Origin: a virus
Strand: one strand, 5' to 3'
DNA length: 64,000 bases
Virus record (IMG/VR): IMGVR_UViG_3300004806_000019
Span: 20,224 to 84,223 of that record
The position numbers and the translations under genes were made by a program. This document shows, piece after piece, positions 9,848 to 59,863 of the stretch (positions are counted from its first letter, which is position 1; the number at the start of each line of letters is the position of its first letter). The notes below the pieces were generated by a model that saw only the letters and a program-made list of their open reading frames with translations, had not been told where the DNA came from and did not search any database.

Positions 9848-10021
9848 ATGACGCACTTTGAAAAACTGATACAGCAGGCACAGGCAGACTGTGTCGCGGC
9901 GATGATGAAGGCGGAATTAGGAAATTCCCACCTTCATGCGTTTCTCAAGGGGCAGCATGGAGGTTTAACCGTCGCCTTGCAGATTTTTAAAAAAGCAATG
10001 CGGCTTGATGCGGAGGAATGA
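9848..10021 (+). CDS. Small hypothetical head-module protein
   Basis: Helical ORF (..GQHGGL..AL..) coupled to the GroES-like gene. Confidence 0.6.
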   Translation: MTHFEKLIQQAQADCVAAMMKAELGNSHLHAFLKGQHGGLTVALQIFKKAMRLDAEE

Positions 10022-10479
10022 TGAGCTTACCGAAGAAAGAAGAAACAGTAGAGGATGTCTTTCCAGAGATCCCTTGTGGACATATACCCTTCGGAATGTT
10101 TGTCATTGTCCAGATTAAGTTATCCAAGCGCGTAACGTCTGGGGGCATCATCATCATTGATGATACCAAGCAGACAGAACAGGACAATACGCAGGTTGCC
10201 AAGGTCGTCGCTATCGGGCCAGCAGCATTTAAAGATCGTCGTACCTTTGAGCCATGGCCGGAAGGGGCTTGGTACAAGGTCGGTGATTATGTTCGTTGCC
10301 CGAAATATGGCGGTGATCGCTGGCGGGTAGATTATGAATATCAAGAGGAAGAGCGTAAGGTGGGGAACCTCGTTCTTGCTCCATCAGTTGTGCAGGGGAA
10401 AGTGGAGTTTGCCATGTTCAAGGACATGGACATCCGGTCCTCTGTAGAAGACCCCCTTAAAATCAAGGCGTATATCTAA
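10018..10479 (+). CDS. groES: Phage co-chaperonin GroES-like protein
   Basis: P.G..VIVQ, TSGGIII mobile loop, KVVAIGP, KVGD.V, KYGG. Confidence 0.9.
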   Translation: MMSLPKKEETVEDVFPEIPCGHIPFGMFVIVQIKLSKRVTSGGIIIIDDTKQTEQDNTQVAKVVAIGPAAFKDRRTFEPWPEGAWYKVGDYVRCPKYGGDRWRVDYEYQEEERKVGNLVLAPSVVQGKVEFAMFKDMDIRSSVEDPLKIKAYI

Positions 10480-11666
10480 TGGCTGGTAGAGAAGCACAGA
10501 TCCTGACTGACGACGATGACGATAGTGGCGTAGGCATCGCTGAAGCGGTATCCAGCAATGCACCGGCAGGGCTTGCCAACAATAATGTTGGATTAGGCTC
10601 CCGTATCGATAATCGTCCCCCGGAAGCCCCTCAGACTGAATTTGAGATCATCGAGACGGATGATAACTTCAATCCTCTCGATCAAGTCCATGTAGAGCCT
10701 GAGAATCGCAATGAAGGACAAGAGGAAACTCTTGTTCAGGAAACGCAGCAGGAACGTGAGGAACGCGCTCATCGTGGTAAGCGTCCTCCGAAAGCTGTTC
10801 GGCAGAGGGAAGCAAAGGACCGGACGGTAAGTGAGCTTAATTTCCTTCGTAGCCGGGTTCAGGAACTTGAGACAAAGGTAACGCAAAGCGTTGAGCCTCG
10901 TCTTTCTGAGTTCGATGAAAACCGTCGCCGGATGGAATTGACAGCGGTTGAAAATGCTCTTGCGGAAGCAGAGAGCCGCTCAATCCATGCTTATAAGAAA
11001 ATGTCAGAGGCAATGGTCAATGCTGATGGAGATGCTTTTGCAAAAGCTCTCCAAGAGCGGGATGAAGCCATTCTTCATGGGCAGCGGTTGCAACTCCGTA
11101 AGAACCAGATGACGACTGAAGCGCAGAGCATTCAGCAACGTCAGCAGCAACCCGCTCAACAAACGCAACCGACACAGCGTCAGTCTCCGCCGATCCCTTC
11201 GATGGTGCAAGAATACATCGATGACTTCACTGAAGAGTTCCCATGGTACAATCCAAAGTCTGGCGATGTAGATTCACAGATTGTCCTTATGCTCGACAAT
11301 GAAGTCGCCTCTGAAGGTTTTGATTCAAAGACTCCAGAGTATTGGGAAGAATTGCGCTATCGCATGGAGCGCAGGCTTCCTGATCGTTTTGAAAGCCAGA
11401 AAGCTCCAAAACAGGCACAAAGAGCAAGACCTCAGACCCAGCAGATTGCGCCTCAAAAACGTGGGCCGCAAATTGGAGGAGGGTCTGAGAGAAGTGCAGG
11501 AACACCTTCTAATCAAGTCTATATTAATCCCGACAGAAAGAGGGCGCTTATAGCTGCCGGGGCGCTAGACAGTGATGGAAGAACTGTGGTAAACAGAGAT
11601 AAGTTTAATGGGTACTTGAAACAGTACCGTGACTTTGATCGCGCAAACGGCGTGGTTCGGCAATGA
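10479..11666 (+). CDS. Probable capsid scaffolding protein
   Basis: Acidic N-terminus, long coiled coil, PWY..YWEEL motif, position before the capsid genes. Confidence 0.7.
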   Translation: MAGREAQILTDDDDDSGVGIAEAVSSNAPAGLANNNVGLGSRIDNRPPEAPQTEFEIIETDDNFNPLDQVHVEPENRNEGQEETLVQETQQEREERAHRGKRPPKAVRQREAKDRTVSELNFLRSRVQELETKVTQSVEPRLSEFDENRRRMELTAVENALAEAESRSIHAYKKMSEAMVNADGDAFAKALQERDEAILHGQRLQLRKNQMTTEAQSIQQRQQQPAQQTQPTQRQSPPIPSMVQEYIDDFTEEFPWYNPKSGDVDSQIVLMLDNEVASEGFDSKTPEYWEELRYRMERRLPDRFESQKAPKQAQRARPQTQQIAPQKRGPQIGGGSERSAGTPSNQVYINPDRKRALIAAGALDSDGRTVVNRDKFNGYLKQYRDFDRANGVVRQ

Positions 11667-19867: not shown

Positions 19868-20668
19868 GTGATCAAGAAACGCAGTCAAGCTGAAATAGAT
19901 TTTGCACTTGAGCTTTATAATGAGCTTGGTAGCGCATACAAAGTTGCCACTCGTATGGGCCTATCAAACAAAGCGGTCTATCGTATGCTTCACGATGCTG
20001 GTGCAGATATTCCTGGTTGGACAGATCCTAAACCGCGAAAACTAAAGTTTGATGGGGATAGCGCGAAAGCAGTAATAGAAGACTATTTATCTGGCATGTC
20101 TTGGGCTGATATGCGGGTAAAATACGGGGCCGCTGACTATGCCATGCGTGAGTGTGTTCGGAGAGCAGGGATAAAACTTCGGGATCATGGCGGTCAGCGC
20201 CGCAGAATTACAGATCAGGAAGAACAAGAAATTGTTGGCTTGCTGAAATCTGGATTAAAGCAGGTTGCGGTATCTGCAAAGTTTGGTTGTCACCAAGGTA
20301 TCGTAAGCAAAATCGCCATTAAGCATGGAGTATCTGACGGTCGAAAAGCGTCTGGTGAAAGACATGGAAGCTGGAAGGGTGGGGTTGTCAAAAATGGCGA
20401 GGGATATGTTTTGGAGAGGATTTATCCAGACGATCCTAATTTCGGCATGGCGGGGCGCAGCGGGTACGTCCCACAGCATCGTTTGGTTATGGCTAGAAGT
20501 TTGAGGCGCAATATTTCGCCATATGAATCTGTCCACCATATCAATGGTGATAGAACAGATAATCGCCTTGAAAACCTTCAGCTTAGATATGGCAAGCATG
20601 GCAAAGGTGTTGTTCTTACCTGTCGCTGTTGCGGCTCTCATGACATAGAGGCATCTAATCTTGACTGA
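19868..20668 (+). CDS. HNH endonuclease (free-standing homing type) with N-terminal HTH repeats
   Basis: WKGG...GY, HRLVM, VHHINGDRTDNRLENL. Confidence 0.85.
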   Translation: MIKKRSQAEIDFALELYNELGSAYKVATRMGLSNKAVYRMLHDAGADIPGWTDPKPRKLKFDGDSAKAVIEDYLSGMSWADMRVKYGAADYAMRECVRRAGIKLRDHGGQRRRITDQEEQEIVGLLKSGLKQVAVSAKFGCHQGIVSKIAIKHGVSDGRKASGERHGSWKGGVVKNGEGYVLERIYPDDPNFGMAGRSGYVPQHRLVMARSLRRNISPYESVHHINGDRTDNRLENLQLRYGKHGKGVVLTCRCCGSHDIEASNLD

Positions 20669-36922: not shown

Positions 36923-38515
36923 ATGAAGCTTGGAAAACTGCCTGCCGTTGTTGATCCGAAAGTCCCGGTATTTTCCAGAGCTTGCACTCCTCCTGTCCCT
37001 CCGGTAACGGCTGATTGGTGTTCAAAGGTCGCAGACTGGCCTTTGGATAAGAATGACACGGTGGGGGACTGCACGATTGCGGCGGCTCAACACTTGATCC
37101 AGGCATGGACGACTTATGCCGGGAACCCGGTGATAGTGTCTGAGGCTGACGTGTTAGCAGCGTATTCTGCGATCTCTGGATATAACGGGACGCCTGCGAC
37201 GGACGTTGGGTGTGTTGAGTTATCGGTTCTGAAATATTGGCAGGCGACGGGGATTGGGGGCCATAAGATTAACTCGTTTGCGGCTCTTAACATTGCCAAC
37301 CTGAATGAGATCAAGGCTGCGATTAATTGGTTCGGGGGAATTTATATCGGGGTGAGGTTGCCGATTTCGGCACAGACGCAACCGGCTGTCTGGGATGTCG
37401 TTCCGGGTTCAACGGGGATACCTGGATCGTGGGGAGGACATGCTGTTTGTGTCCAGTCTTATGATGCGACAGGCATAACCGTCATCTCGTGGGGCAAGAC
37501 GATCAAGATGACGTGGGCTTTCTGGCTGGCCTATGTTGACGAGGCGTATGCGGTTGTTTCGACGGATTTCTTGAATGCACAGGGTGTTGATCCGCAAGGG
37601 TTGACGCTGGCTAACCTCATCGCTGACGAGGCTCTCCTTGCTGCTAACGTGTCAGGACCGAGTGATGCCCTGGTGACGTTTATCAATGCGGCGACTGCGC
37701 CTTCAAGTGGCGTGGGTGCTTTATTGGCTCCTAACCTTCTTCTGACTGCCGCGCCTGAGATGGCTCTTGGCGGGATTAACTTCCCTATCTTGGCGGGTGG
37801 GACTCAGGTTGATGGCGTGACGGCGGTTCAGGCTGGGACGAGGTATGCGCTTGGGTTGCTGTCCACTCCCTATATGTGCAGCGGATATCTTGGGTACATG
37901 TCAGGATGGAGCGGCGGTCAGGCGACGATAGCTTATGGGAACAACCAGTTTGCGAGTCAGGTGTTTGCGCCTGACTTTACGACGACGGTTCTTGCTAATA
38001 GCGCGGGTGGTCTGGTGATCGTTGGTACGTCTATAGTTGGCGTGATGATCACGACAAGTTCGGCTTATATCTTTAGCTCTGCCGACATTGACCAGATAGA
38101 GAGTTTCATCACGACCCTGACGGGGGCGGCTCCTGCGATAGTCAGGTTATATGGCGGGATCTTAGGGCGTTACCCGACGATAGCTGAGAACCAGTGGTAC
38201 ACGAAGAACCTGTATCTTCCTGCCTATAACGCGTCACCAGGATCTGCGTTGCATGTGCTGGGAAACAATCTTGGTATTCTTTACTGCTTTACGCACTCGC
38301 CAGAGTTCATGGGTGGGAGTAGTGGTTATGGCAAAGACCCAGTAGCCTATGTGACATATTTGTACCAGAATGCCTTGGGGCGCTCTCCTTCTACTAGTGA
38401 GCTTACTTGGTATGTGGCACAATTAAAAAGCCGTGATCTCTGGGATGTTGTCGCACTGAACATCACTCAGAGCGATGAGGCCAGAGCTTACAACGGTGTT
38501 TGGAATCAGCAATAA
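36923..38515 (+). CDS. Papain-like (C1-type) cysteine peptidase + degenerate trypsin-like domain + DUF4214-like domain
   Basis: ND.VGDC, GGHAV, ISWG; ALLAPNLLLTAAP; YVTYLYQNALGRSPS..EL.WY. Confidence 0.7.
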   Translation: MKLGKLPAVVDPKVPVFSRACTPPVPPVTADWCSKVADWPLDKNDTVGDCTIAAAQHLIQAWTTYAGNPVIVSEADVLAAYSAISGYNGTPATDVGCVELSVLKYWQATGIGGHKINSFAALNIANLNEIKAAINWFGGIYIGVRLPISAQTQPAVWDVVPGSTGIPGSWGGHAVCVQSYDATGITVISWGKTIKMTWAFWLAYVDEAYAVVSTDFLNAQGVDPQGLTLANLIADEALLAANVSGPSDALVTFINAATAPSSGVGALLAPNLLLTAAPEMALGGINFPILAGGTQVDGVTAVQAGTRYALGLLSTPYMCSGYLGYMSGWSGGQATIAYGNNQFASQVFAPDFTTTVLANSAGGLVIVGTSIVGVMITTSSAYIFSSADIDQIESFITTLTGAAPAIVRLYGGILGRYPTIAENQWYTKNLYLPAYNASPGSALHVLGNNLGILYCFTHSPEFMGGSSGYGKDPVAYVTYLYQNALGRSPSTSELTWYVAQLKSRDLWDVVALNITQSDEARAYNGVWNQQ

Positions 38516-46970: not shown

Positions 46971-48098
46971 ATGGTTGGGATGTTAAACGCAATTGCTGGC
47001 AGATATCATTATGATGAAGGCGGCTCTACTGGAGATGACGACCAGCAGAGAGGTCCACTCTCCACTTATGACCCGTCTGTTCTTGGCAATATGCAGAATG
47101 CAGTCCTAGGGGGAACACCTGAATCTGCCTTGCAGAAATATAAGGATGCCCAATCAGCACAGGAAGCAGCGGCCCAAGCAAAGAAGGATCGTATCCAACA
47201 GGCAATGGATACACTGAGTGCAAATCGCTCCAATCTCCCGATGATGGCTTTTGGCGCAGGGATGATGAAGCCAACCCACACTGGCACGTTTGGCGAAACA
47301 CTTAGTAATGCAATGAGCGATACAATCCCCGCCATTGATAAGCAGCGTCAATATGAGGCGCAGCTTCAGCAGATGGGGGTTTCAGCGGCTGACGTTGATC
47401 TGGCCCAGAAGACTAAAGCGGCCCAAGATTGGACAGACCGGATGAAGCTTGGGTTGACTACGGCAGAAACAAACCAGAGATTGCAGCAAAGTGATCAGCA
47501 ACATCAGGATTCGCTTAATCTTCAGAGGCAGCAGCTTCAAGGACAAAAAGGATATTATGATTATTTGAAGCAAGAAGACCCTGACGAAGTTTCCTCATGG
47601 GTGCCATTGTATGAAAAACCGGGCGTTCAAAAGATGGACCCTGTAAGTGGCTTGCCGTTATATCAAGGCATGAGCAAAACAGAGAAGCCCGTCGGTCAGC
47701 CTCGGATTGTTAGAAGTGATGATTTGGATAGCAGCAATACAAGTTCCCGTGCAGATCCGATTATTTCGCAGTATAATTCGGCTCAGAAGGCGCTTGATGC
47801 TGCTATTAGCAAAAGGTACGTTATATTAGGATCAAATCCTAAAGCCGATACGAAAATGTTAGATGAGCAAATCGCTCGTCAAAGAGAGCTTGTTGAACAA
47901 TTGAGAGTTGCGGCTACGACAAGGTTGGGAGGCTCAACCACAACGCAGCCTGTATCGCCGGATCCCTTAGCGGCAGGATTAGGGGGAAACGGAAGTGTTC
48001 CTTCTAAGAAGCCAAACATTGATCCTGGCATATATTCTCCTTCTCAAGAAGCAGCTAGGTCTGGAGCATTTCCCGCCCCACAGCCAGGAATTGATTGA
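46971..48098 (+). CDS. Ejection/internal virion protein
   Basis: GAGGG SD; FG.GM..PT.TG.FGE motif; Q-rich helices. Confidence 0.65.
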   Translation: MVGMLNAIAGRYHYDEGGSTGDDDQQRGPLSTYDPSVLGNMQNAVLGGTPESALQKYKDAQSAQEAAAQAKKDRIQQAMDTLSANRSNLPMMAFGAGMMKPTHTGTFGETLSNAMSDTIPAIDKQRQYEAQLQQMGVSAADVDLAQKTKAAQDWTDRMKLGLTTAETNQRLQQSDQQHQDSLNLQRQQLQGQKGYYDYLKQEDPDEVSSWVPLYEKPGVQKMDPVSGLPLYQGMSKTEKPVGQPRIVRSDDLDSSNTSSRADPIISQYNSAQKALDAAISKRYVILGSNPKADTKMLDEQIARQRELVEQLRVAATTRLGGSTTTQPVSPDPLAAGLGGNGSVPSKKPNIDPGIYSPSQEAARSGAFPAPQPGID

Positions 48099-51000
48099 TG
48101 CCTGAAGATCGCGCAGATGCTCCCCTACCGGAATCAGTGGACATTTCGGAGGCTACTCCTGCACCTGTTATAAACTATGTTAATTACACTCCCGCCCCGA
48201 CTCAGGCGCCAATAAAATCATCATTGCCTCCTTTGACACCGCGTCCAACAGAAAAGCCAGCACAAGGTCTTCCGTTAGACGTTGTTAAGCAGAAAGTGGC
48301 AAAGTTAAAAGATGCCGGTTATTCGCAGGATGAGATTGCTGAATCTCTTATGAAGAATCCTTTTTTCGGCCCTCGTATATCTGAGGCGGCTGATAAAGGA
48401 TGGGAATATCCAGAAATTTTTTCGAGATTTGGCCTCGATGGATATGATCCAACGGAAGGTGGTCCGTTAAAGACTCCATGGCGATATGTCAAAGCAGGCG
48501 TTGAATCTGCTGGGGAAATGATTGGAAACACTCTCCAGGGCGGAGCTATCGCTTCAGACCGAAGATCTTTATATGCTCCATATTATGAGGACTACACCTC
48601 GTTTAAGAGCAAGTCTCCTGAAGAGCAGCAGCAGATTCTTAGTAAGATCGCTAATAGTGATATGGACTTGGAGGCCAGACAGAATCTTACAAAAGAGTTC
48701 CGCAGGCTTCAAGAGGGGGCAAATCCTAGACAATTTGACATGCTGGCAAATCAGCCAGTTGAACAATTGCCTGGATACAAAGTTGGACAATGGTTCAAAG
48801 ACACCACACAGGGACTGCTTAATCCTGAAGAGGAAAAGCTAACTGGCGTTAGGATTGCTAAAGCTGCTGCCCCTATCGTTCCTGCTATGGCTGCAACAGC
48901 ACTTGCCGGTCCTGCTGGCCCAATGGCTCTGTTTGGCGGGTCTTCTTATCAAGAGGGTTATGAGAAGGCAAAAAAGGTTGGCGCCTCAGAAGAAGCTGCC
49001 CGTGACGCTGCTATGAAAGAAGCCGGTATTGGTGCTGCCGCTGGTGTTCTGGATGTTGGAGCCATATTAGGCCCAATAGCAAAATACTCTCCTGAACTCC
49101 TTAATAGGGCGCAAGCAATCCTTTATAAAGGTATTCAAAGCGGTGTCATTGGAAGTTCAGTCGGAGAAGCTCAAAAGTGGCTGAATGCTCAGATTGAACG
49201 CACAACTTATGATCCAAATGCACAATATAAATTTGATCCGACAGAAGCTGCGATTGGATTTGCAGGGATGGCAATTCCAGGTGCAGTTCATGGGGCATTC
49301 CATGAGCAAGCCCCAAAAGAAACCGCTCCGACAGGAACAGATATTCCTCATCCATCATTGATTGCCCATGCTTATTGGAGGATTGATGAGCTTGAGTCTA
49401 TCTACAATGGAACAGAGGGAAACCCTCCAAGGGATCTAACTCCTGCTGAAGCTGCCGAATACGCATTTCTTCAGAAGAACAAAAATAAGCCCGAAGAGCT
49501 TTCTAAAGTGATTCGTGGGACTGAGCCTTCTGAGCAACCGGAGCCGACTCAAGCGCCAACAGTTACGCCAGCCCCAACTGTTTCTAAATCTAATAAGCCT
49601 CCGAAAGCGACAAAGGCTCCTGTGCAGGCTGAGATACAAGCTCAACCTGAAGCGCAAGTTCAACCGGAAACACAGGATAAGGTTCAAGAGGCTGCTAACG
49701 CCCTTGTCGAAGAGGCAAAGCAGAATCCTACGGTTACAACACCTGAAAAAGATAGTGATATCTCCGCTCAAATTAAGGAGATGATCAACCCAAACAACCC
49801 GAGAGATTCTGTCTACATTGCTCCAGGGAATGAGCATGAAATCCCTGTCAGTGCTTTAGATCATCCAGGTGTTGAGCTTGCTGAAAATCCCGTTAGTAAG
49901 GCTTTGTTGCTAACGACCAATATGGACAAAGCCATAGATTTTCAGAAGAACAGAGATCTCACAGAAGAAGAGAAAGCCAATTTGCTGGGTCTTTCTCAAC
50001 CCAAAACTGAGGCGTTAAAAGATCCTAATGCTGTCGTCGTTCAAGGGAAGAATGAGGATGGCGCTATTGTTCATCAGGAGCTTACCTCACAGGATAACCT
50101 GCCTAACTCTGTAGAGAACACAGCGAATAGGACTCCTGAAACTGGTCAAGTTGAAGTCGCCAGCACAACAGGAGCGCAAGCCCATAGAGTTGGTGGTGAT
50201 GATCAAGCTGTTCCTGTGGCAAAAGGAAAGGTTCCGACTCCCGATCCTGAGATACAGATTGCTGAGATCCGTAAGCAGATTGAATCATTTGAAGAACATC
50301 GGGATCAAGCTCTTGAAGTTGGGGATACTCCTACGGCTCAGAATTGGCATAACCGTATAAGGGAGGCTAATGAACAAATAGCCGAGCTTCAAAGAGGTCA
50401 ACCGTTAGAAAAAGAGCCAGCAGTTCAAGAGAGTGAACCCGCTTCTCCGCAGGCTCCGTCAACCGATATTCCTTGGGAAAATCATTATCAACGAGCAGTT
50501 GATGTCGTTGGGAGCGAGAGTTTCCCGCTTAAAAGCAAACCACTTGCAGATAAGCTTGGGGTTGATGAGGCTATGGCAACAAGGCTTTTACAAGCCATGG
50601 CGTCCAGGGGAGCTATTAGGCAAACAAAGAATGGTGGGTTTTCACGAAATCCAGATAGAGGCCCGTTAGACTTTCTTACATTCTTGGCAGCAAAGGGAGG
50701 TCTTCGGGATGATGAAGGCCATCTTCTTGCTCAAAGTATGGACGCTCAGAGGATGGTTCCGAATTACGGACCTTTAATCCGTAAGAATGGAATGGGGATT
50801 GATCAGGCAGGGGAAGCTTTGTGGCAGGCCGGATATTTTGGCCCGACTGATTCTACGCCAAGGCCAACAGAGACAGAAGTATTAAACAAGCTAAGTGAAG
50901 CCCTGAATGGGAGACTTCCTCTTGAAGAGCGGTATTCTGAATATGACCGAGATCGGGTGCAAAAGATTCAGGACACCAAGACCGCTAAAGATCGGGAGAA

Positions 51001-54000
51001 GCTTGAAAAAACAGCTAGGGCTGACATTGAGAAGCTTAATGAAGAAAAGACATATGGATTAACCCCAGAAGAAAAAGCTAGAGCGATTGAGCTTTTGGTT
51101 GAGCATCCAGAGGATTTCTCTCCAGAGGAGGCTGTTGTTCACGTTCTCGATACGTCAATGATTGAGGATCTTCATGGGGCTATTGACGTAGCAAGGGATG
51201 CACATGATGACGAGTTTTCCGATATACCGTTTGAGTGGCCAGCAGAGGTTGAACCTCCTCAACGAGGCGAAGAGGAGGGTAAAGGGACAGAAGTCTCTAT
51301 CCCCACTTCAGAGGAGGAATCTGGCACGGTTGGCAAAGAACCTGGAGAAGGTGAACGCCAAGATCTCCGTGACAAAGAAATAGGTGATGTCATTGGTGCA
51401 GGGGAACGGACAGCCCCACCAATGGACAGAGAGCGTCAGCAGGCGGAAATAAGGGCGCGACAGGCAGGTAAGAAAAGAAGCGGAAAAGAACAAGAAGAAC
51501 CGGGCGGGATGTTTGCCACGGAAGAAAAGGGGTTATTTTCCGAACCGAAGAAAACCGCTGATTATGGAACTCAGAATAAGGTCATTACAGCAGACGCGGC
51601 GGAGAAAGCTAGAGAGCTTCTTCGCAAGAAATCAAATCAGATTAATGCTGGTATTGACCCTGAAACCATGTTGGCTGGTGTTACGCTTGCTGCCTATCAC
51701 ATAGAGGCAGGAACAAGAAAGTTCGTAGATTTTGCAAGGGCTATGGTTTCTGATGTCGGCGCATGGATTAAGCCGTACCTGAAGTCATGGTATAATGCGA
51801 TCCGCGATTATCCGGGGTTGGAGGAAGCTGCCAAGGACATGACGCCGCATGAAGAAATGAATGCGGCCATGGATCAATTGGAAAGGGAAGGCTATGTATC
51901 AAGCGAATCCAGAGGTCTGGAACAAACTGGCGAGGGACCAAAAACTGAAAACGCCATGGGCAAAGAGGCTCTTCCCACTGAAGAGAGAGGAGCTTCACAA
52001 GGCGTTAGAGAAAGAAACGGAGAAGCTGAAGCAAGAGGGAATAACAAGCCCTCAAGTGAGGAGCAGCTTCCTTCAGATGGCGCCTCTTCTGTGGGAGAGA
52101 GAGGCAATAGCGAAAGAGACGCAGGAGAACCCGGCTTTGGGGCAGTGCCTGCCGAACGTGGAGGACGCCCAGGAGGCTACGATGTTAGCCAGCATGGACC
52201 GGCCATTGAGCATATCGAACCAGAAGAAGTTAATAAAACTGCTGGAGACTCCAAGACAGTAGCTCAGAGGTTTGCAGAGCAGAAGATTGCAAACTCTCGT
52301 CCAGTTGTCTGGAACGATATTAATAACATCAGAGAGACATTACCCGCTCTATTCCCTGATCAACAAGATGATGTTCATAAGTCTGAAAAACGTCTGAGTG
52401 TTGCTCATGGGATTATGATTACCAACGGAACTGGCACCGGCAAGACATGGAGTGCTGGTGGTGTAATCGCTAGATTTGTCCGTCAGGGAAAAGAAGACAT
52501 TCTTGTTGTTGCCCCCTCTCAGGACATCCTCACTGATTGGAAAGCTGCCCTTAAACATCTTGGTGTCGATGCCTCCGTTTTAGAAGGGACGCAGAAGTCT
52601 GGTAAGGGCGTAACACTTACTACCTATGCTAATCTTGGGGAAAATCGCCATATAGCGGATCGGAACTGGCATTTAGTTGTCGCAGACGAAAGCGATAATC
52701 TTATGTCAGATCAAAAAGGGAATACCACAAAAGCTCTAAATAGCTTCAGGGCGATCACGAACCATCCCGACGCATTGTATATTAGAGCGGATATGGCTTT
52801 GAGGGATCTTAATGATCGTGTTGCAGATCTCTCAGAGCGTGTTCATAAAAATTATAACAACAAAGAACTGACCTCTCAGTGGATAAACGCCCAGAGAGAG
52901 CTTGAGCAAAAACGCAAAGAGTTGGTTGATGTATACAAAGATCAACCGCGATCAAAGGCTATATTCCTTTCGGCCACTCCATTTTCATATGACAAAACAA
53001 CTGACTATGGAAATGGCTATCTGTTCGATTATCAAAAAGAAGGTAATAGAAGTGGGTATAACGTAGCTGAAGGTCGTAACCTTTTTATGGTTCAGAACTT
53101 TGGCTATCGGATGAGAAATGGGAAACTCACGGCTCCAGAAGCAAATGTTAATAGTGAGGTTCTTGAAAGAGATTTTCATGAACGCCTGAAGAAAGAAGGG
53201 GCTTTGATCGGGAGACGGTTGGAGGTTGATTCTGACTATGATCGTAAGTTCATATTAGTTAATGACGCTATTGGGAATAACATTGACCGGCTTCTTGAGT
53301 TTTTGCGTGAATCTGATGACGGGAAATTCCGTCCGATCTATTCATTCGTTAATGATAGATTTGATTATCTTTCAAGGCAGAGGTTGCTTGAGGCAATCAA
53401 GGCCAATCACGCAATCCCTATTATTCGGGAACACCTTGCTCTTGGCAGAAAGGTTGTTGTCTTCCATGACTTCAATGAAGGTGGTGGATTCCATCCTTTT
53501 GATACGAGTGAAATTCCAAATAACCCTGTCTTTGTTACCGTCAATGGAAAGTCACATGAGTTCAATTTAAAAGACCTCGCAAACGAATTTCACGACAGGA
53601 ACCCTGACGCAATAAAAATGGACTTCTCATCTATGAAAAGTCCGATTGAAACGATGACCAAGGCTTTTCCAGAAGCTCTTGTCTACAATGGAACGGTAAG
53701 TTCCAAGAACAGGGCCACCATCAAGCAACTCTTTAATCAAGATGGTTCTGGCAGAGATGTCATTGTTATTCAATCGGCTGCTGGTAGAGCGGGAATAAGC
53801 CTGCACGACACAACGGGAGTCCATCAAAGGGTTTTAATTAATCTTGGTATGCCCACTCGGCCAACAACCTCAATTCAACAAGAGGGGCGCATTTATCGTA
53901 CAGGGCAAAAGTCCGATGCAATGTTCCGGTATATGAATACTGGCACAGCATGGGAGCGGGAAGCATTTGCCAGTAGGATTGCTGAACGGGCAAGCTCAGT

Positions 54001-57000
54001 TGAAAACCTTGGAATGGGGAACCAAGCACGTCAATTGAAGCAATCATTCATTGATGCCTTCAATGACACATCTGAGTACCCTCCTTCTCCTGAAGAGGGA
54101 AAAGGTGGGAAATCATTAGACCGTCAGACATTCAGTGATATGTCTGATTTTGAAAGAGCTAAAACTTATTACTTTGCAGAGCAGAAGAAGACGGGTCGCA
54201 GAGATCAGCGTGAGGGTGTTGACTATTTTCCAACACCAGAACCGTTGGCACAGAAGATGGTTGAATGGGCAAATGTTAAGCCCGGAGAGAAAATCCTTGA
54301 ACCATCTGCTGGTCATGGCGCGATATCTCGTTATTTCCCAGAATCTACAGAACGCACTATCGTTGAGCCGTCTAAGGATCTTGCAACCAGAGCCAGCCTA
54401 ATGACTCCTGGCGCTAGAGTGGTGAACGATAAGTTTGAGAATCTGCATATCTCAAATAAGTACGATGGGATTGTTATGAATCCACCTTTTGGCATTGGTG
54501 GAAAAATGGCAATTGAACATCTGGCTAAAGCTGCTTCCCATGTTCGGGAAGGAGGGAGGATCGTTGCCCTTCTCCCAGAAGGACCGGCAACCGATAAACG
54601 TCTTGCTGCATTTAGAGATAGTGATGCGGCAAAAGACCTTCATCTAGTTGGAACGGTATCCTTGCCGACTCATATGTTTGATCGGGCAGGAACAAACGTT
54701 AAGTCTCATGTTCTTATATTTGAAAAGCATACCGTTCCAAAACAGGCAAATCAGTATGGCTCTGATGTCGGAGATAAGATCCGATCTGTTGTACACCATG
54801 CAGATCTGTCTAACTCTCCAAGCATTAACGATACGTTCAATCGACTTGAGCATTTGTCGATGCCTGATCGTATTGAGCCGGTGACTAAAGAGGTTGAGGC
54901 TCCAGAAGTTCCATCAAATGGAAAGGTTGTCGTTAGTGGGCTGGCCCTGAGTTCAATAACCAATAAAGACGGGTCTATCATGGTCAGCCCGACCAAGCGT
55001 CTTGGCGCCAATGATTATGCTCGGTTTATGCGGGTTGGTGAGAGATATGGGGGGGTCGAAAATGATTATTATAGTGGATTATCATTTAAATCTCCCGATG
55101 AGCGCAGTGCGTTTTTTAATGCTTTAGAGCGTGGTGAAACAGGGAATGAGCCTTCCGCTGAAGCTCAAAGGCAAATTGATAATGGTGGATTAGGCGTTAC
55201 CTTTGATCGTAAGCAAGGGTTGCGTGAAGATGGTGCTGTTTATGAGAAACTTCATACTCAGACCAGAAAAAAGCTTTTTTATGCAAAGCCTGATAACAGA
55301 GTATCCCCTGAGACTTATCAAAAGCTAAAACAGATTGCTGGAGAAAATGGCGGAGGATTCTGGGACCGCTATGAGAAAGCATTCAGGTTTAATGACGAAG
55401 ATAGCCGTCAAGCATTTATGAATAAAGTTACAGGGTCACTCCCCCTGAAGAGTGGAGACTTGCGGGTTGGCAAGAAAATGGACGCATTATATGTCCATAA
55501 GTCTGCCATCGATACGCTTCCAAAGGATGCTCAAAATCGTATTGAAAGAGCAAAGCCTCCGTTTGATTGGGATGTTGCCAAGATAAAAAGAGACAAAGAT
55601 GGCGCTCTTGAGAATGTCTCTCTTATTGAGGCAAAAGATTTTGATGAAGCTGATGAGCCGAGTGTCGGAAGATCCTTTGTCATAGATAGAGACGGAGAGA
55701 CTCGTATCATCCCAGCTTCTGGGAAAATTTATCATGGTAAATGGCAAATGGTTAAGTCCGACTATCAGGGCTTTGATGTTGATGCCAGCAAGGAAAGAAC
55801 ACGGCTTCTTGACAGCGTAACGTCAACTGAGGACAAGAGACGGTACGGTCAAAAAGATTACATGGATAATGTTGTCGCGCCTAAGCTGTCTAACAATGCA
55901 AAATTAGCAGATCGGTTCTTAACTGATCGGGACAAAGTTCCTGAGACAGTAACAACTCTCGACTACAACCCAAAAGATGGGATTGTTCAAAAAATTAGCT
56001 CGGCTAACACGGTGCGTCGTCAAGCTGCACAAGTTTTCGGCAATGATAAGTTTTATCCTAGATCCGAAACGCCGTCTTTTAATCTTGATCTTGGTGGCGG
56101 AAAATTCCCTGAAGGAACAGAACGACTTGCTGAAAAGGGAATAACCAATCTCATCCATGATAAATATAATCAGAGTGAGCAGCATAACAGGGATGTTGTT
56201 GAGAAGGTAAAGGCTGAGAAGGGAACCGGAATCGTTTCTGCCACTAATGTTCTAAATGTCATCAAGGAACCAATGGCAAGGCTTGACCTTATTCGCCAAG
56301 CTGCAAAAGGTTTGAAGGATGATGGGGTCGCTTATTTCCAAATCCATGAAGGTGATAAGAGTGGAGAAGGGAAAGAGACAAGTGATGGGTGGCAAGCCAA
56401 TAAGCTGACATCAACCTATCTTCCTATGGTCAGGCAGTATTTTGGCAAGGTTAAGCAGGTTGGCAGGCCAGATGCTCCTAAAGGCAATCTAATTATTGCC
56501 GCAGAGCCTAAGAGAATACCGGGACAAACTATTTGGGAAGGCACTGAGCCTTGGGATACCAAAGGCAATACCGTGCCTATGTTCTCGGGGGACGTGCGTA
56601 ATGAGCATTACTTCCCTGAAGATGGTGAGGGCCTGATTGCTCATAATGAATCTTTAAGCCCAGGAGATGCTGAGTTAGTTCATAACGATGCACGGGCATA
56701 TGTTTTGGATCGAGGAAACGAAACCGGCCATGAGCATGGGATTGCTGTTCATTCTGATGGGCGAGTTGAACATTTTACGGAAGGAAAAGAGGATACTCTT
56801 TCTATAAAGAAAGTTGCTCCAGAGCTATATCGTGAGATGGAGCAAGCTGGTAACAACATTGACGTTCATCATAATCACCCAGAGGGAACGAGCGCCCCAC
56901 TATCTGAAAGTGATTTGCAGCTATCGACTCTTGATGGTGTCAATCGTGTAATTGCCCATGCTGGAGACGGTGTATTTTCCGTTGCAAAATGTTCGGACGC

Positions 57001-59863
57001 CTTAAACCAATTCGGCAATGCTGGAGATCGGCAAAAGCTTATCCGAAATTCATACAGAGATGCTCTTCGGGCCATACAAGAAAGGATATTCACTGGTATC
57101 CGAGATGGAGAGATTTCTGAAGAGGGGATCCATAACATTGGTGATTATGAGCATATTATAAACATGGCCCTGGATCGGGTTGGGTTGATTGATTATGTTT
57201 CAAACCATCAGATTGAAGACACTCCTCTCAATCGGGAACTTGCTCAGAAGGCAATTCTTGCTGCATGGGATAGCGCAAATGAAAATGGATTTAGAGTAAG
57301 GAGTAGCCAGGATGCTGTCAGGCTTGATGCTAAATTATTCCATGATGGAACCTTTGCCGAAGTTGCGAAAAATTTTGGTGAACCTTCAGGAACTCTCCAA
57401 GGAGGATCCAGAGGCGAAGGAAGAATTGGAGAAACTGCGAGAGACTATCCGCTGGAGAGAGAAAATAAATCTTCTTCCCAAGAAGGAGCAGCGGAATCGT
57501 TAGGTCTTAAATCTGGCGACCTAAGAACAGAAGATGAGAAACGTGGGGCTGTAACAATCTCTCATGTCATCGATAAGTGGAGCGCGGAAGGACCGGGGAA
57601 GGGTCCACTTCGGCGCCCTGTTCAAGTCCTTGAGGGAGCGGCTGATTATGTTAAGGAAACACTTCCTATAACGAGTCAAATTTGGAAATGGGCAAGTCGT
57701 CGCATTTTCCCTGGTTCAGCAGATGCTTTCGCTAAATCAGCAGCAAGAACAATCCGTCATATGTATGGGCAGTCCTATCTCTGGGAGATCCAGATGGGAC
57801 ATAAGCTCGATGAAATATCCAATCGCCTCGATGCTCTTCCTGTCGATGAATGGAACAAGATCGGGATTGCTTGGGCCAAAGGGGACTATGAATCAATTCC
57901 GGAAGAATACCGCGAGGCGTTTAAACAAGCAGATGACTTTACAAAGAAAGCCACAGAGAGGCTTCAGTCTCTTGGGGTTCTGAAAGATGCAATGGGGCAT
58001 TATGTAGGAAGAATTTGGAAGAAGCGTGGAGAGAATGCCCCGTCAACTGATGAGGAAGGAAAGAAGATATTCAATCAGTTGATGAGCAAGTTCCCCCTTC
58101 TTGGAAGGAAATCCTTCCTGAAGAAAAGATATTTTGATGAGTATGAGGATGCTATCGCGGCAGGAATGGAGCCTGTCTACAACCCTCTGAAGACACAGAT
58201 GGTTAAGATTGCTGAGATGAACAGATATTATACAGGGACAACTCTTGTCCGTGCGGCGAAAGAAAGCGGTATAGCAAAGTTCTTTGCAAGAGGATCTCAG
58301 GTACCGGACGGTATGTTAGAGTTGGCTGGTCCTGAATTTCAACGCCCATTTATGAAGGTCATTGAGGGAGAAAAGACTACGTCTGTTCTTCCTGGCGCTT
58401 GGTATGCCCCAGAGGGATTTGCTCGGGTCTACAACAATCATGTTTCAAGAGGGTTCTCTGGAACACCAGAAGGTGAACCTGTGCAGATGCTTAGGAGCAT
58501 TGGTGGGTTTATGAACCAAGCACAGTTGGGTTTGTCTATGTTCCACCCTGTCTTTACAACGTTTGACGCCATGAGTAGCACCATGGCTATTGCCGTTGAT
58601 CAGGCTGTTCGTAAAGATTTTGGTCTTGCTGCTCAGACATTTGCAAAATCTATGAACCCATTCGGTGTTTATAAGGACGGGGATAATTTCCTAAAGGCAG
58701 TCCTTGATCCTGACAAGGCAACTCCAGATCAGAAGTTACTGATTAATGCTCTTGGAGAGGGTGGCGGAAGAGTTTGGATGGAGAGAGTTCTGCGCCCGAC
58801 TGATGAAGGGGCAATGGTTGCTAAAAGGATTTCGGATATACCCGCAACATTAGGAACGGCATGGAAGCTTGCGTCTCATAAGTATGACGGAAGTGGGATG
58901 ACTAATCAAATGAGGCGAGTGTTTAATGTCGCCGGTCGGGTTATGGAGACGATGTCGTCTCCGATTATGAACCATTTGGTTCCTCGTCAGAAGTTAGGTG
59001 TGTTCTCTCGTATGGCGGCTGATTGGCTTGCTGCAAATCCAAATGCAGGAAGTTTAGAGCGTATCACTAAAATGCAAGATATCTGGGAAAGCGTAGATAA
59101 CCGTTTGGGTCAAATGGTTTATGACAACCTTTTCTGGGACAAGACTCTTAAAGAAGCAAGCTTCCTTGCTGTCCGGTCTGTTGGTTGGAACATGGGGTCG
59201 ATCCGAGAGATTGGTGGAGGACTGACTGATTTCACAGGAGCCATAAAGGATAAGATTGCTGGTAGAGAGGCCGAGTGGACAAACAGAATGTCATATCTCA
59301 TCGCTATGACAGCTAGTACGGCCATCACCGGGGCAATAATGAATCGTCTCTTTACGGGAGAAGGTCCAAAAGAATTAAAGGATTATTTCTTCCCTCGTAC
59401 TGGAGAAACGAGGTTGGTTAAACTTCCAGGTCGCAATCACCCTGTGATGGAAGTTCCTGAGAGGTTGTCGATCCCCTCTTACTTCAAAGACATTATGGCT
59501 TGGACAACCCAACCGGGTCAGACTGCGAAGAATAAGATTCATCCCTTATTTAGTGCAATGGCTCAAGCTTGGGATAACCATGATTACTACGGTGATATCA
59601 TCTGGAATAGAGATGACCCTGCTTATAAACAGGCATTGGATATGGCAAAGTTTGCTGGCTCAACATTGATTCCGTTCTCAATCACCGGAACAATGAAAAT
59701 GTGGAAAGAGCGTCCAGGTCCAGTTGCCACTATGGGTATGCTTGGGTTCCAGCCTGCACCTGGATATATAGCCGCCCCAGAAGCAAGACAAGCATGGGAT
59801 GATTACATCCATGCTCAAGAGGTTAGAAAGAAAGCAGCGCGTGAGCTTAAAAATAGTAACTAG
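48095..59863 (+). CDS. Giant polyvalent internal virion protein (DarB-like): winged helix, SF2 helicase, N6-adenine MTase, second SAM-dependent MTase, JAB/MPN domain, helical C-terminal domain
   Basis: GTGTGKT (about 52427), ADESD, SAT, QQEGRIYR; LEPSAGHG + NPPF (about 54479); LDLGGG + NVLNV (about 56246); HNHP....LS..D (about 56870). Confidence 0.85.
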   Translation: MMPEDRADAPLPESVDISEATPAPVINYVNYTPAPTQAPIKSSLPPLTPRPTEKPAQGLPLDVVKQKVAKLKDAGYSQDEIAESLMKNPFFGPRISEAADKGWEYPEIFSRFGLDGYDPTEGGPLKTPWRYVKAGVESAGEMIGNTLQGGAIASDRRSLYAPYYEDYTSFKSKSPEEQQQILSKIANSDMDLEARQNLTKEFRRLQEGANPRQFDMLANQPVEQLPGYKVGQWFKDTTQGLLNPEEEKLTGVRIAKAAAPIVPAMAATALAGPAGPMALFGGSSYQEGYEKAKKVGASEEAARDAAMKEAGIGAAAGVLDVGAILGPIAKYSPELLNRAQAILYKGIQSGVIGSSVGEAQKWLNAQIERTTYDPNAQYKFDPTEAAIGFAGMAIPGAVHGAFHEQAPKETAPTGTDIPHPSLIAHAYWRIDELESIYNGTEGNPPRDLTPAEAAEYAFLQKNKNKPEELSKVIRGTEPSEQPEPTQAPTVTPAPTVSKSNKPPKATKAPVQAEIQAQPEAQVQPETQDKVQEAANALVEEAKQNPTVTTPEKDSDISAQIKEMINPNNPRDSVYIAPGNEHEIPVSALDHPGVELAENPVSKALLLTTNMDKAIDFQKNRDLTEEEKANLLGLSQPKTEALKDPNAVVVQGKNEDGAIVHQELTSQDNLPNSVENTANRTPETGQVEVASTTGAQAHRVGGDDQAVPVAKGKVPTPDPEIQIAEIRKQIESFEEHRDQALEVGDTPTAQNWHNRIREANEQIAELQRGQPLEKEPAVQESEPASPQAPSTDIPWENHYQRAVDVVGSESFPLKSKPLADKLGVDEAMATRLLQAMASRGAIRQTKNGGFSRNPDRGPLDFLTFLAAKGGLRDDEGHLLAQSMDAQRMVPNYGPLIRKNGMGIDQAGEALWQAGYFGPTDSTPRPTETEVLNKLSEALNGRLPLEERYSEYDRDRVQKIQDTKTAKDREKLEKTARADIEKLNEEKTYGLTPEEKARAIELLVEHPEDFSPEEAVVHVLDTSMIEDLHGAIDVARDAHDDEFSDIPFEWPAEVEPPQRGEEEGKGTEVSIPTSEEESGTVGKEPGEGERQDLRDKEIGDVIGAGERTAPPMDRERQQAEIRARQAGKKRSGKEQEEPGGMFATEEKGLFSEPKKTADYGTQNKVITADAAEKARELLRKKSNQINAGIDPETMLAGVTLAAYHIEAGTRKFVDFARAMVSDVGAWIKPYLKSWYNAIRDYPGLEEAAKDMTPHEEMNAAMDQLEREGYVSSESRGLEQTGEGPKTENAMGKEALPTEERGASQGVRERNGEAEARGNNKPSSEEQLPSDGASSVGERGNSERDAGEPGFGAVPAERGGRPGGYDVSQHGPAIEHIEPEEVNKTAGDSKTVAQRFAEQKIANSRPVVWNDINNIRETLPALFPDQQDDVHKSEKRLSVAHGIMITNGTGTGKTWSAGGVIARFVRQGKEDILVVAPSQDILTDWKAALKHLGVDASVLEGTQKSGKGVTLTTYANLGENRHIADRNWHLVVADESDNLMSDQKGNTTKALNSFRAITNHPDALYIRADMALRDLNDRVADLSERVHKNYNNKELTSQWINAQRELEQKRKELVDVYKDQPRSKAIFLSATPFSYDKTTDYGNGYLFDYQKEGNRSGYNVAEGRNLFMVQNFGYRMRNGKLTAPEANVNSEVLERDFHERLKKEGALIGRRLEVDSDYDRKFILVNDAIGNNIDRLLEFLRESDDGKFRPIYSFVNDRFDYLSRQRLLEAIKANHAIPIIREHLALGRKVVVFHDFNEGGGFHPFDTSEIPNNPVFVTVNGKSHEFNLKDLANEFHDRNPDAIKMDFSSMKSPIETMTKAFPEALVYNGTVSSKNRATIKQLFNQDGSGRDVIVIQSAAGRAGISLHDTTGVHQRVLINLGMPTRPTTSIQQEGRIYRTGQKSDAMFRYMNTGTAWEREAFASRIAERASSVENLGMGNQARQLKQSFIDAFNDTSEYPPSPEEGKGGKSLDRQTFSDMSDFERAKTYYFAEQKKTGRRDQREGVDYFPTPEPLAQKMVEWANVKPGEKILEPSAGHGAISRYFPESTERTIVEPSKDLATRASLMTPGARVVNDKFENLHISNKYDGIVMNPPFGIGGKMAIEHLAKAASHVREGGRIVALLPEGPATDKRLAAFRDSDAAKDLHLVGTVSLPTHMFDRAGTNVKSHVLIFEKHTVPKQANQYGSDVGDKIRSVVHHADLSNSPSINDTFNRLEHLSMPDRIEPVTKEVEAPEVPSNGKVVVSGLALSSITNKDGSIMVSPTKRLGANDYARFMRVGERYGGVENDYYSGLSFKSPDERSAFFNALERGETGNEPSAEAQRQIDNGGLGVTFDRKQGLREDGAVYEKLHTQTRKKLFYAKPDNRVSPETYQKLKQIAGENGGGFWDRYEKAFRFNDEDSRQAFMNKVTGSLPLKSGDLRVGKKMDALYVHKSAIDTLPKDAQNRIERAKPPFDWDVAKIKRDKDGALENVSLIEAKDFDEADEPSVGRSFVIDRDGETRIIPASGKIYHGKWQMVKSDYQGFDVDASKERTRLLDSVTSTEDKRRYGQKDYMDNVVAPKLSNNAKLADRFLTDRDKVPETVTTLDYNPKDGIVQKISSANTVRRQAAQVFGNDKFYPRSETPSFNLDLGGGKFPEGTERLAEKGITNLIHDKYNQSEQHNRDVVEKVKAEKGTGIVSATNVLNVIKEPMARLDLIRQAAKGLKDDGVAYFQIHEGDKSGEGKETSDGWQANKLTSTYLPMVRQYFGKVKQVGRPDAPKGNLIIAAEPKRIPGQTIWEGTEPWDTKGNTVPMFSGDVRNEHYFPEDGEGLIAHNESLSPGDAELVHNDARAYVLDRGNETGHEHGIAVHSDGRVEHFTEGKEDTLSIKKVAPELYREMEQAGNNIDVHHNHPEGTSAPLSESDLQLSTLDGVNRVIAHAGDGVFSVAKCSDALNQFGNAGDRQKLIRNSYRDALRAIQERIFTGIRDGEISEEGIHNIGDYEHIINMALDRVGLIDYVSNHQIEDTPLNRELAQKAILAAWDSANENGFRVRSSQDAVRLDAKLFHDGTFAEVAKNFGEPSGTLQGGSRGEGRIGETARDYPLERENKSSSQEGAAESLGLKSGDLRTEDEKRGAVTISHVIDKWSAEGPGKGPLRRPVQVLEGAADYVKETLPITSQIWKWASRRIFPGSADAFAKSAARTIRHMYGQSYLWEIQMGHKLDEISNRLDALPVDEWNKIGIAWAKGDYESIPEEYREAFKQADDFTKKATERLQSLGVLKDAMGHYVGRIWKKRGENAPSTDEEGKKIFNQLMSKFPLLGRKSFLKKRYFDEYEDAIAAGMEPVYNPLKTQMVKIAEMNRYYTGTTLVRAAKESGIAKFFARGSQVPDGMLELAGPEFQRPFMKVIEGEKTTSVLPGAWYAPEGFARVYNNHVSRGFSGTPEGEPVQMLRSIGGFMNQAQLGLSMFHPVFTTFDAMSSTMAIAVDQAVRKDFGLAAQTFAKSMNPFGVYKDGDNFLKAVLDPDKATPDQKLLINALGEGGGRVWMERVLRPTDEGAMVAKRISDIPATLGTAWKLASHKYDGSGMTNQMRRVFNVAGRVMETMSSPIMNHLVPRQKLGVFSRMAADWLAANPNAGSLERITKMQDIWESVDNRLGQMVYDNLFWDKTLKEASFLAVRSVGWNMGSIREIGGGLTDFTGAIKDKIAGREAEWTNRMSYLIAMTASTAITGAIMNRLFTGEGPKELKDYFFPRTGETRLVKLPGRNHPVMEVPERLSIPSYFKDIMAWTTQPGQTAKNKIHPLFSAMAQAWDNHDYYGDIIWNRDDPAYKQALDMAKFAGSTLIPFSITGTMKMWKERPGPVATMGMLGFQPAPGYIAAPEARQAWDDYIHAQEVRKKAARELKNSN
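51204..51383 (+). CDS. Candidate nested (+1 frame) basic helical protein inside the giant gene
   Basis: AAGGGA 5 nt upstream; amphipathic sequence; host frame is a disordered linker. Confidence 0.4.
   Translation: MMTSFPIYRLSGQQRLNLLNEAKRRVKGQKSLSPLQRRNLARLAKNLEKVNAKISVTKK
51894..52262 (+). CDS. Candidate nested (+1 frame) 122-aa protein inside the giant gene
   Basis: Purine-rich SD GGAAAGGGAAGG; globular-looking sequence; host frame is a G/E/R linker. Confidence 0.55.
   Translation: MYQANPEVWNKLARDQKLKTPWAKRLFPLKREELHKALEKETEKLKQEGITSPQVRSSFLQMAPLLWEREAIAKETQENPALGQCLPNVEDAQEATMLASMDRPLSISNQKKLIKLLETPRQ
57312..57503 (+). CDS. Candidate nested (+1 frame) 63-aa helical protein directly after the JAB domain
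   Basis: TAAGGAG SD 8 nt upstream of ATG; amphipathic helices. Confidence 0.5.
   Translation: MLSGLMLNYSMMEPLPKLRKILVNLQELSKEDPEAKEELEKLRETIRWREKINLLPKKEQRNR

Follow-up and report, generated by a model that had tools for sequence, protein, structure and literature searches.

The IMG/VR virus record IMGVR_UViG_3300004806_000019 (84,223 bp; completeness 100) comes from an uncultured freshwater phage, and its final part, a stretch of 64,000 nucleotides (nt), is the window that we analyzed here. The window carries genes for a terminase, a portal protein, a GroES-like protein, a 304-amino acid (aa) HK97-type capsid protein, and tail-fibre-like proteins. A same-strand block of late and structural genes ends in a giant open reading frame (ORF) of 3922 aa, which overlaps the ORF upstream of it by 4 nt. 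Within the giant protein we found a ten-residue peptide that occurs three times, and all three copies lie in joints between homology blocks that were defined independently of the peptide. Judged from its sequence and placement, the peptide probably marks where the giant protein is cut or docked. The features that matter for this argument are the following (window coordinates, strand, and aa positions in the giant protein):

48095..59863, plus strand: giant polyvalent-protein ORF, 3922 aa, TTG start, with Pfam and PHROG domains
51431..54919, plus strand: helicase and first methyltransferase block, aa 1113-2275 (phrog_10691, E = 0 over 1113-2275)
55436..55465, plus strand: junction peptide 1, SLPLKSGDLR, aa 2448-2457; the X domain (VGK..YVHK) starts at the next residue
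55466..56569, plus strand: X domain and second class-I S-adenosylmethionine (SAM) methyltransferase-like cassette, aa 2458-2825 (phrog_16075 at 2454-2569)
56570..56599, plus strand: junction peptide 2, TVPMFSGDVR, aa 2826-2835, between the end of methyltransferase homology (~2821) and the start of the JAB-like module (~2856)
56600..57496, plus strand: JAB/MPN+-like (RadC-like) module and low-complexity tail, aa 2836-3134 (signature E2880, H2926-N-H2928, S2937, D2940)
57497..57526, plus strand: junction peptide 3, SLGLKSGDLR, aa 3135-3144, in a disordered-looking linker directly ahead of the C-terminal domain
57527..59863, plus strand: conserved C-terminal domain, aa 3145-3922 and stop codon, ~780 aa, with homology to giant proteins

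By the definition of Iyer et al. (2017), the giant protein is a phage polyvalent protein. It is phage-encoded, as the terminase, portal, and capsid genes of the window attest, and one chain holds at least two unrelated enzyme domains, namely a helicase, a first methyltransferase region, a member of a Methyltransf_23-like family, and a module with a JAMM signature, along with a weak winged-helix (wHTH) signal at aa 808-846. The N-terminal ~700 aa are partly common to one relative. The subsequent block contains an SNF2/strawberry-notch-type helicase at ~aa 1421-1995 (ResIII and Helicase_C_4 at E ~7e-10) and a first methyltransferase region of the N6-adenine type at ~aa 2030-2180, where several "DNA methyltransferase" PHROGs match; the "DarB-like antirestriction" family phrog_10089 also matches the giant protein (E 1.4e-40). 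After the first methyltransferase follow, in this order, an unassigned stretch, the X domain with the second methyltransferase, the JAB-like module, a low-complexity linker, and the C-terminal domain. The gene closes the structural block and is read from the same strand, a position that favors the view that the giant protein is virion-type cargo.

The initial annotation had placed the motif at domain borders, around a second methyltransferase and a JAB module, and this description was borne out: homology blocks break at the peptides, and the delimited cassettes stand alone elsewhere. For the X-methyltransferase cassette, enclosed by sites 1 and 2, a search of 1.84 billion representatives gave 3,651 hits at E ≤ 1e-3, and among the best 150 of these, alignments start at aa 2444-2458 and finish at ~2786-2821. 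Eleven of 25 family members match Pfam Methyltransf_23 (the giant protein's own cassette at E = 0.019) and the D-x-G-G-G columns are invariant throughout the family, which supports the designation "second methyltransferase" at the family level. Free-standing proteins of 318-517 aa span the cassette. Contigs of 19-30 kb carry two of them, P0221 (318 aa; Vibrio splendidus genome) and P0206 (366 aa), and P0206 and P0225 lie on contigs of 30-57 kb. T4-like Vibrio phages encode free-standing proteins of 324-325 aa that share the X domain from residue 17-18 onward at 28-29% identity; two such phages are F86 and 6E35.1a (L001, L002), and in F86 the X-domain gene lies among genes annotated as "prohead protease inhibitor." A tblastn search of GenBank phages returned distant X-domain and methyltransferase matches only.

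The JAB-like module, enclosed by sites 2 and 3, has homology that begins at ~aa 2856 and carries an E...HxH...S..D JAMM signature. In a module alignment of 25 rows (the query and 24 copies from relatives), E2880 is kept in 23 rows, H2926 in all 25, and H2928, S2937, and D2940 in 24 each, and the module has the RadC-like form HHNHP.G. Against Pfam, the module matched 0 families at E ≤ 1; the NCBIfam RadC model gave E = 0.055 and 13 bits, which is below the family threshold (cut-off 180); and a PDB sequence search gave no relevant match. The 24 copies come from 19 relatives (three in P0130; also P0267, P0007, P0008, and P0148) and keep the E, HHNH, S, and D residues. Pfam recognizes the module in no member tested, and many relatives have it directly before the C-terminal domain.

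The C-terminal domain is common to at least 122 giant proteins (E ≤ 1e-3) and has at least 184 members in a local search. Alignments to it start at aa 3139-3434, most full-length ones at ~3160-3215. The domain also exists as proteins of ~870 aa (P0201, 871 aa; P0205, 876 aa) on contigs of 28-40 kb, and members of the family are found in contigs of metagenome-assembled genomes (MAGs) labelled Acidobacteria, Proteobacteria, Nitrospirae, Verrucomicrobia, and others. No Pfam, NCBIfam, or PHROG family matches the domain, and tblastn at E ≤ 1e-5 found no match to it in 50,697 GenBank phage records.

A ten-residue peptide in three joints

The motif had initially been reported as LKSGDLR at 55445-55465, MFSGDVR at 56579-56599, and LKSGDLR at 57506-57526. 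Translation of the giant ORF located these at exactly those coordinates, as aa 2451-57, 2829-35, and 3138-44, with SGD[LV]R beginning at aa 2453, 2831, and 3140. The common peptide is longer than had been described, extending over ten residues with the pattern [ST][LV][PG][LM][KF]SGD[LV]R. Sites 1 and 3 are identical at 9 of 10 residues, and LKSGDLR is the sole 7-mer that is repeated within the giant protein. From the composition of the protein, 0.0092 copies of SGD[LV]R are expected, versus the 3 that are seen; among 20,000 shuffles, 173 had one copy and 0 had two or more. When the rest of the protein was compared with sites 1 and 3, site 2 was the top 10-mer (score 51, next 41), and a score of 51 was reached by the maximum in 1.35% of 2,000 shuffles (p ~0.014 for site 2).

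The ten-residue pattern is also rare outside the giant protein. A six-frame translation of the entire 84,223-bp genome has it in just these three places. Across 267 proteins (633,225 aa), the pattern gave 6 matches against a shuffle mean of 0.0: three in the giant protein itself, two at the orthologous position of P0127 and P0266, and one in P0085. The minus strand has a fourth SGDLR at 7568, inside a 587-aa ORF (window 6483-8246), that is without the extended pattern. This only other SGDLR of the window sits in "IGFVSGDLRKHPV", which resembles a conserved motif of GT41 (OGT/SPINDLY-like) glycosyltransferases and which we take to be unrelated to the junction peptide.

The likeness between the sites resides in the peptide and not in the DNA, as the initial annotation had proposed from the divergent codons: by manual count, 9 of the 21 bases and 6 of the 7 codons are different between sites 1 and 3, and MAFFT could not align the DNA stretches of the three sites. 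The 50-aa flanks of the site pairs are no more similar to each other than shuffles are (p 0.15-0.81). Because neither the DNA nor the 50-aa flanks align, the likeness is an isolated island that is held at the peptide level. Upstream of site 3, the 30 adjoining residues are 90% disorder-promoting. A nested frame does stop 2 nt ahead of site 3, as had been noted (stop-to-stop 57300-57503, 67 codons), which is trivial. Internal translation starts at the sites were considered and dropped: a GGAG with a GTG fits, by eye, site 1 only.

The stretch is present in 17 runs from other samples, four of which were compared; these consist of low-depth contig pieces whose coverage reached sites 1 and 2 but not 3. 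The DNA of site 1 (run X9) and that of site 2 (run X12) are identical to ours, and the four compared runs showed no sequence variants, all contig pieces being identical at this low depth. For window 55300-57700, the same phage DNA was found in at least nine freshwater metagenomes of 2017 from different studies (runs X1-X17), and lake-water metagenomes of 2020 also contain identical fragments. Since its DNA recurs in freshwater samples of both 2017 and 2020, the phage belongs to a persistent freshwater population.

Possible cleavage or docking at the joints

We lean, tentatively, toward the reading that the three peptides are lineage-specific cleavage sites. They would be short recognition sites in exposed joints of a virion-type polyvalent protein, and one dedicated endopeptidase would cut at all three, yielding a ~2,450-aa N-terminal part with the helicase and the first methyltransferase, a ~375-aa X-methyltransferase, a ~300-aa JAB-like enzyme, and the ~780-aa C-terminal domain. 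Because the ten-residue conservation ends at the Arg of the motif, we would expect the cut directly after this Arg, with Leu/Val at P2. The enzyme might be an unrecognized phage protease, a host protease, or the embedded JAB module, and it might act in the capsid or after ejection. Recognition of all three copies by one factor would be the simplest meaning of a private, peptide-level island in three joints. Cleavage is favored because the delimited pieces equal autonomous proteins, because the conservation is one-sided and stops at the Arg, because other lineages have joint peptides of their own around the same cassettes, as in viral polyproteins, and because processing is a standing prediction for polyvalent proteins in the excerpted text of Iyer et al. 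(PMC5512222).

The joint peptides of other lineages differ in sequence from the one described here. In P0170, the same X-methyltransferase cassette is preceded by LPK[AV]E at a distance of 28 aa and followed by another copy at 8 aa, and this peptide occurs three times each in P0004 and P0170. VGTSFG is found four times in P0006, PLFQR[TSK] five times in P0037, GDIFDQVAP four times in P0063, and ASLAD[IV] four times in P0067; P0040 has ERGALG and GALGVP at four sites, and P0101 has LPAPP six times, three of these as GLPAPP. Two such peptides, PLFQRTD (P0037) and ERGALGVP (P0040), stand 8-20 aa ahead of the first aligned residue of PBECR5 domains. This pattern of own repeats is not universal among polyvalent proteins. 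Of 155 relatives, around ten have the peptide that precedes their C-terminal domain again farther upstream (z > 3.5), some of these peptides being proline-rich low-complexity sequence, and the giant protein ranks tenth. Giant ORFs of at least 1,500 aa in 19 metagenome and viral loci (L006-L086) have few repeats, and a reduced-alphabet repeat count, which is noisy, gave 31 of 172 proteins versus 14.7 in shuffles (~2x). A sortase-like LPxTG reading of "LPMTGG" in two relatives was rejected, as these have no C-terminal sorting signal and the MAG contigs of the family are mostly labelled as Gram-negative phyla.

The closest relative of the giant protein is P0266, a protein of 2120 aa encoded on an IMG/VR contig (locus L086; 38,989 bp). 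The two proteins are collinear and share 50% identity over aa 2856-3912, and they are 33% identical over aa 480-698; between these shared blocks, P0266 has ~500 aa with an HEVIH segment and the giant protein has ~2,150 aa of other cargo. Homology to P0266 resumes 21 residues after site 2 with different modules upstream, in line with the initial suggestion that breakpoints of homology would fall near the motif. The position of site 3 reads SLGLHEDDIR in both P0266 and P0127. An island SLGL...D[LI]R.E is thus kept in P0266, the "SG" being lost, and because the linker ahead of it is barely alignable, the island itself is under constraint. A pre-domain element "FDVLRDK" of another subfamily looks like site 3 by eye; MAFFT places it at aa 3184-88 and not at site 3.

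A breakpoint so close to site 2, together with the autonomy of the cassettes elsewhere, would also suit recombination joints, that is, conserved linker DNA serving as the crossover for cassette swaps between co-infecting phages, in the manner of the demarcation motifs of polymorphic toxins. Such swaps would, however, need DNA identity, whereas sites 1 and 3 differ at the bases counted above and the three stretches cannot be aligned. The relatives with which cassettes would be exchanged moreover lack the motif, and no close relative was found in the viral, metagenome, and genome collections. With the DNA of the sites so unlike, recombination joints are the least probable of the readings considered here, and very improbable in absolute terms.

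Several observations weigh against cleavage. The initial annotation had counted a lack of the motif at the domain borders of relatives among the signs that would refute its reading, and such a lack was found: in a border scan of 120 of the 122 C-terminal-domain proteins and 139 further proteins from a wider search, the exact motif was absent. Upstream of the breakpoint in P0266, nothing resembles site 2; the alignment score lies below the shuffle mean, for which reason "GSDIER" was rejected as a counterpart. Site 1 coincides in part with a semi-conserved extension at the N terminus of X-family members, one that free-standing homologues have as well, and part of site 1 is thus inherited domain sequence and not a pure linker signal. 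There are three copies only, with site 2 a modest third member at the p value given above. As for the enzyme, PHROG and Pfam recognized no prohead protease among the ORFs scanned in the head-gene block, where remote homologues are possible; HExxH is absent throughout the 3922 aa, in which Pfam finds no peptidase. The motif, in its ten-residue and looser forms, is found in no other protein of the phage, head proteins included, and being private to the giant protein, it is not a general head-protease code. Finally, the related giant virion proteins JC1 gp69 (PMC9144972) and phi24B gp47 (preprint) were detected in virions by mass spectrometry, and the excerpted texts on them contain nothing on processing.

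The shorter pentapeptide SGD[LV]R was found in 4 of the 120 C-terminal-domain relatives and at no module border. Three of these four carriers have it within a conserved "EYLSGDVR.KL" motif of the methylase-helicase part, and the fourth, P0113, has "PLSGDLRHEDD" in a linker 9 aa past a homology block, where one such match is about what chance would give. Among the 139 wider-search proteins, the looser pattern [ST]GD[LVIM][RK] picked up three proteins only, P0234 and P0253 with SGDVR and P0246 with SGDMK, and in none of them was a connection to a module border seen. These relatives reach ~55% identity at most. The loci that alignment scans found, 80 in metagenomes, 1 viral (L086), and 41 on genome contigs, do not exceed 59% identity, and the one at 59% covers the C-terminal end only; a single-protein scan of viral contigs found no closer relatives, a "shorter" protein search gave 3 matches of no help, and blastn against GenBank phages found no DNA match. 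At such identities, and with several relatives having joint peptides of their own, the absence of the motif would look as expected of a fast-evolving site code.

As a candidate enzyme, a "papain-like peptidase" at 36923-38515 was rejected, since Pfam gives DUF4214 only and there is no PDB sequence match. ORF 10479-11666 had no informative match in the scans, and Pfam finds no family in P0266, including its HEVIH segment.

That no protease was found in the scans would also fit an uncut docking motif to which one partner binds three times, which we regard as possible although we are inclined to doubt it. The partner could be another ejection protein, the capsid interior, the portal, or a chaperone, by which the 3,922-aa chain would be folded, packed, or threaded for ejection; the peptide would perhaps form a strand-turn-strand with KSG as the turn. 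An isolated island with unrelated flanks is in keeping with this, as is the change in P0266 of the middle from KSG to HED while SLGL and D[LI]R stay, which is what a turn between contact segments would allow. The linkers of relatives are, furthermore, rich in conserved short motifs. Strongly conserved among these, 25-45 aa ahead of the C-terminal domain, is "H(S/G)FDITPxMRxxAxxxG[FQ]P[LM]F[SAQ]R" (in short, "DITPxMR..G.P[LM]F.R"), which is present in P0011-P0030, P0042-P0061, and others; "QGRLLE," "ADEGLFARPE," and "LYSFPGMLFDP" recur as well. P[LM]FS was observed 20 times versus 5.4 in shuffles, and site 2 (PMFSGDVR) may be a local form of this P[LM]F[SAQ] linker motif. Yet no docking partner was identified, and no other phage protein carries the motif.

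The overlap of site 1 with the X family raises the further alternative that the three sites resemble each other only through the history of their modules and have no function in common, the likeness arising from an old copying event or from chance convergence. Site 1 would then be the N-terminal extension of the X family, site 3 an extension of the C-terminal domain in this sub-lineage, and site 2 a weak look-alike. Homologue alignments indeed enter site 1, where relatives show [LI][KR]S..h.[VI]GK, in forms such as IRSKKFGVGK, RRSGDRVGK (P0175), and PVKRSKWGVGK (free-standing Vibrio phage proteins), and site 3 is inherited together with its domain, as SLGLHEDDIR in P0266 attests. The absence of the exact motif from the borders of the other relatives scanned points the same way, as do the statistics of site 2, which alone has p ~0.014 and which together with site 3 has p = 0.12 in a test for repeats bracketing the JAB module, and the ~10 of 155 relatives with repeated pre-domain peptides, several of them proline-rich. 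On the other hand, two peptides of separate origin would hardly come to agree at 9 of 10 residues without selection while their synonymous differences are saturated; by rough hand arithmetic, a 9/10 match anywhere in the protein has an estimated probability of <1e-3. LKSGDLR is, moreover, the only repeated 7-mer of the protein, and every copy falls in a joint. We consider a by-product of module history somewhat unlikely. Sites 1 and 3 seem to be of different origin yet have nearly the same sequence, which would imply convergence under a common reader or an old copying event.

Returning to cleavage, the embedded RadC-type JAB module could itself be a self-excising polyprotein peptidase that cuts on both its sides and before the methyltransferase cassette. 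In this scheme, the L-K-S-G and M-F-S-G within the motif would read like a ubiquitin tail (cf. the LRGG at which JAMM enzymes cut), and the injected effectors would thereby be freed from the conserved C-terminal domain. The module is flanked by two of the three sites and adjoins the C-terminal domain in many relatives, it is the only hydrolase candidate in cis for a motif that is private to the giant protein, and GLSGLRGG follows the JAB module of P0141. P0266, however, retains the module although its site 3 reads LHED and its site 2 is missing, and a bracketing repeat at p ≤ 0.025 was found in 2 of 25 module copies (P0159 and P0135; an artefact in P0141 was excluded), on which ground the idea that JAB modules are generally bracketed by repeats was dropped. 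Iyer et al. argue, in the excerpted text, that RadC domains act on nucleic acids (PMC5512222). Self-excision by the JAB module is hence highly unlikely; if true, a RadC-like JAB domain would for the first time be assigned a peptidase role, and a phage would have a processing system akin to deubiquitinases.

Comparison with known systems

Cutting of packaged, ejected proteins at a short consensus common to many substrates is known from head-protease processing, where T4 gp21 acts on internal proteins and Alt, and from the prohead proteases of phiKZ and SPN3US. The window differs from such T4/phiKZ/HK97-type head-protease codes in that no prohead protease was recognized among the head-block ORFs scanned and that the capsid, portal, and other head proteins lack the motif; where fused protease-capsid families match the 304-aa capsid protein, they do so with their capsid part only. 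Polymorphic toxins have demarcation motifs of the VENN type, which are conserved among homologues at the junction of constant and variable parts, also in DNA. The junction peptide is unlike these, being absent from the borders of the 120 and 139 relatives and having three DNA copies that cannot be aligned. In the MARTX toxins of Vibrio, a cysteine protease domain cuts between effector domains. Here the likeness lies in modules on one chain, short exposed linkers, and cuts at a repeated site, and it is one of analogy and not of membership: the giant phage protein has no detected cysteine protease domain, is not a secreted toxin, and has a ten-residue site. RNA-virus polyproteins likewise have a virus-specific consensus that is repeated at junctions and conserved on the side before the cut, but they differ in that no embedded protease is identified here and the peptide stands at the last three junctions only.

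The analogy with RNA-virus polyproteins is also drawn in the excerpted text of Iyer, Burroughs, Anand, de Souza, and Aravind (2017; PMC5512222), who predicted that polyvalent proteins accompany the DNA and are split by proteolysis into their individual domains. The giant protein resembles the proteins described in those excerpts in that it is phage-encoded and strings a helicase, two methyltransferases, and a RadC-type JAB domain on one chain. It differs in that processing is ascribed there to embedded zincin-like metallopeptidases, whereas it has no HExxH (PMC5512222, as excerpted). In the main text of that paper, the words "linker" and "boundar" do not occur and "cleavage site" appears in the reference list only; with linkers, boundaries, and cleavage sites thus undiscussed, a repeated junction peptide is not part of the polyvalent kind as described. 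The literature that we searched described no repeated junction peptide as a candidate site code and named no cut site for polyvalent proteins.

DarB of phage P1 and the DarB-like giant proteins of Bcep22-like podophages share with the giant protein a helicase and methyltransferase core and a giant ORF that ends the structural block. Among these, JC1 gp69, a DarB-like protein of 4515 aa, was found in virions by mass spectrometry according to the excerpted text of PMC9144972. No junction motif or processing is reported for DarB-like giants in those excerpts (PMC9144972), and the C-terminal domain of the giant protein is absent from the 50,697 GenBank phage records.

The three peptides provide exact, testable candidate positions in one polyvalent protein. 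If they are cut sites, they would define the mature products that are injected, namely an anti-restriction-type helicase-methylase, a second methyltransferase, and a JAB enzyme, and they would offer natural boundaries for expressing each module. If they are left uncut, they would still be conserved linear motifs in a protein family that is absent from isolate phages (the same 50,697 GenBank records).

Neighboring segments and genes

Ahead of site 1, the unassigned stretch at window ~54900-55435 (aa ~2276-2447) contains, by eye, two similar units, SFKSPDERSAFFNAL and FRFNDEDSRQAFMNKV, which both finish in "...F[KR].[PN]DE[RD]S..F[FM]N..". This arrangement suggests a duplicated small domain. Farther toward the N terminus of the giant protein, the sequence "EEKGLFSEPKK" occurs near aa 1150.

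Elsewhere in the window, an HNH endonuclease gene (phrog_20891, E 9.5e-23) lies at 19868-20668 within the structural region. The GroES-like gene encodes a GroES/Cpn10-like co-chaperonin and is located at 10018-10479, in the head-gene block between the portal and capsid genes (Pfam Cpn10 E 1.6e-6; phrog_3188).

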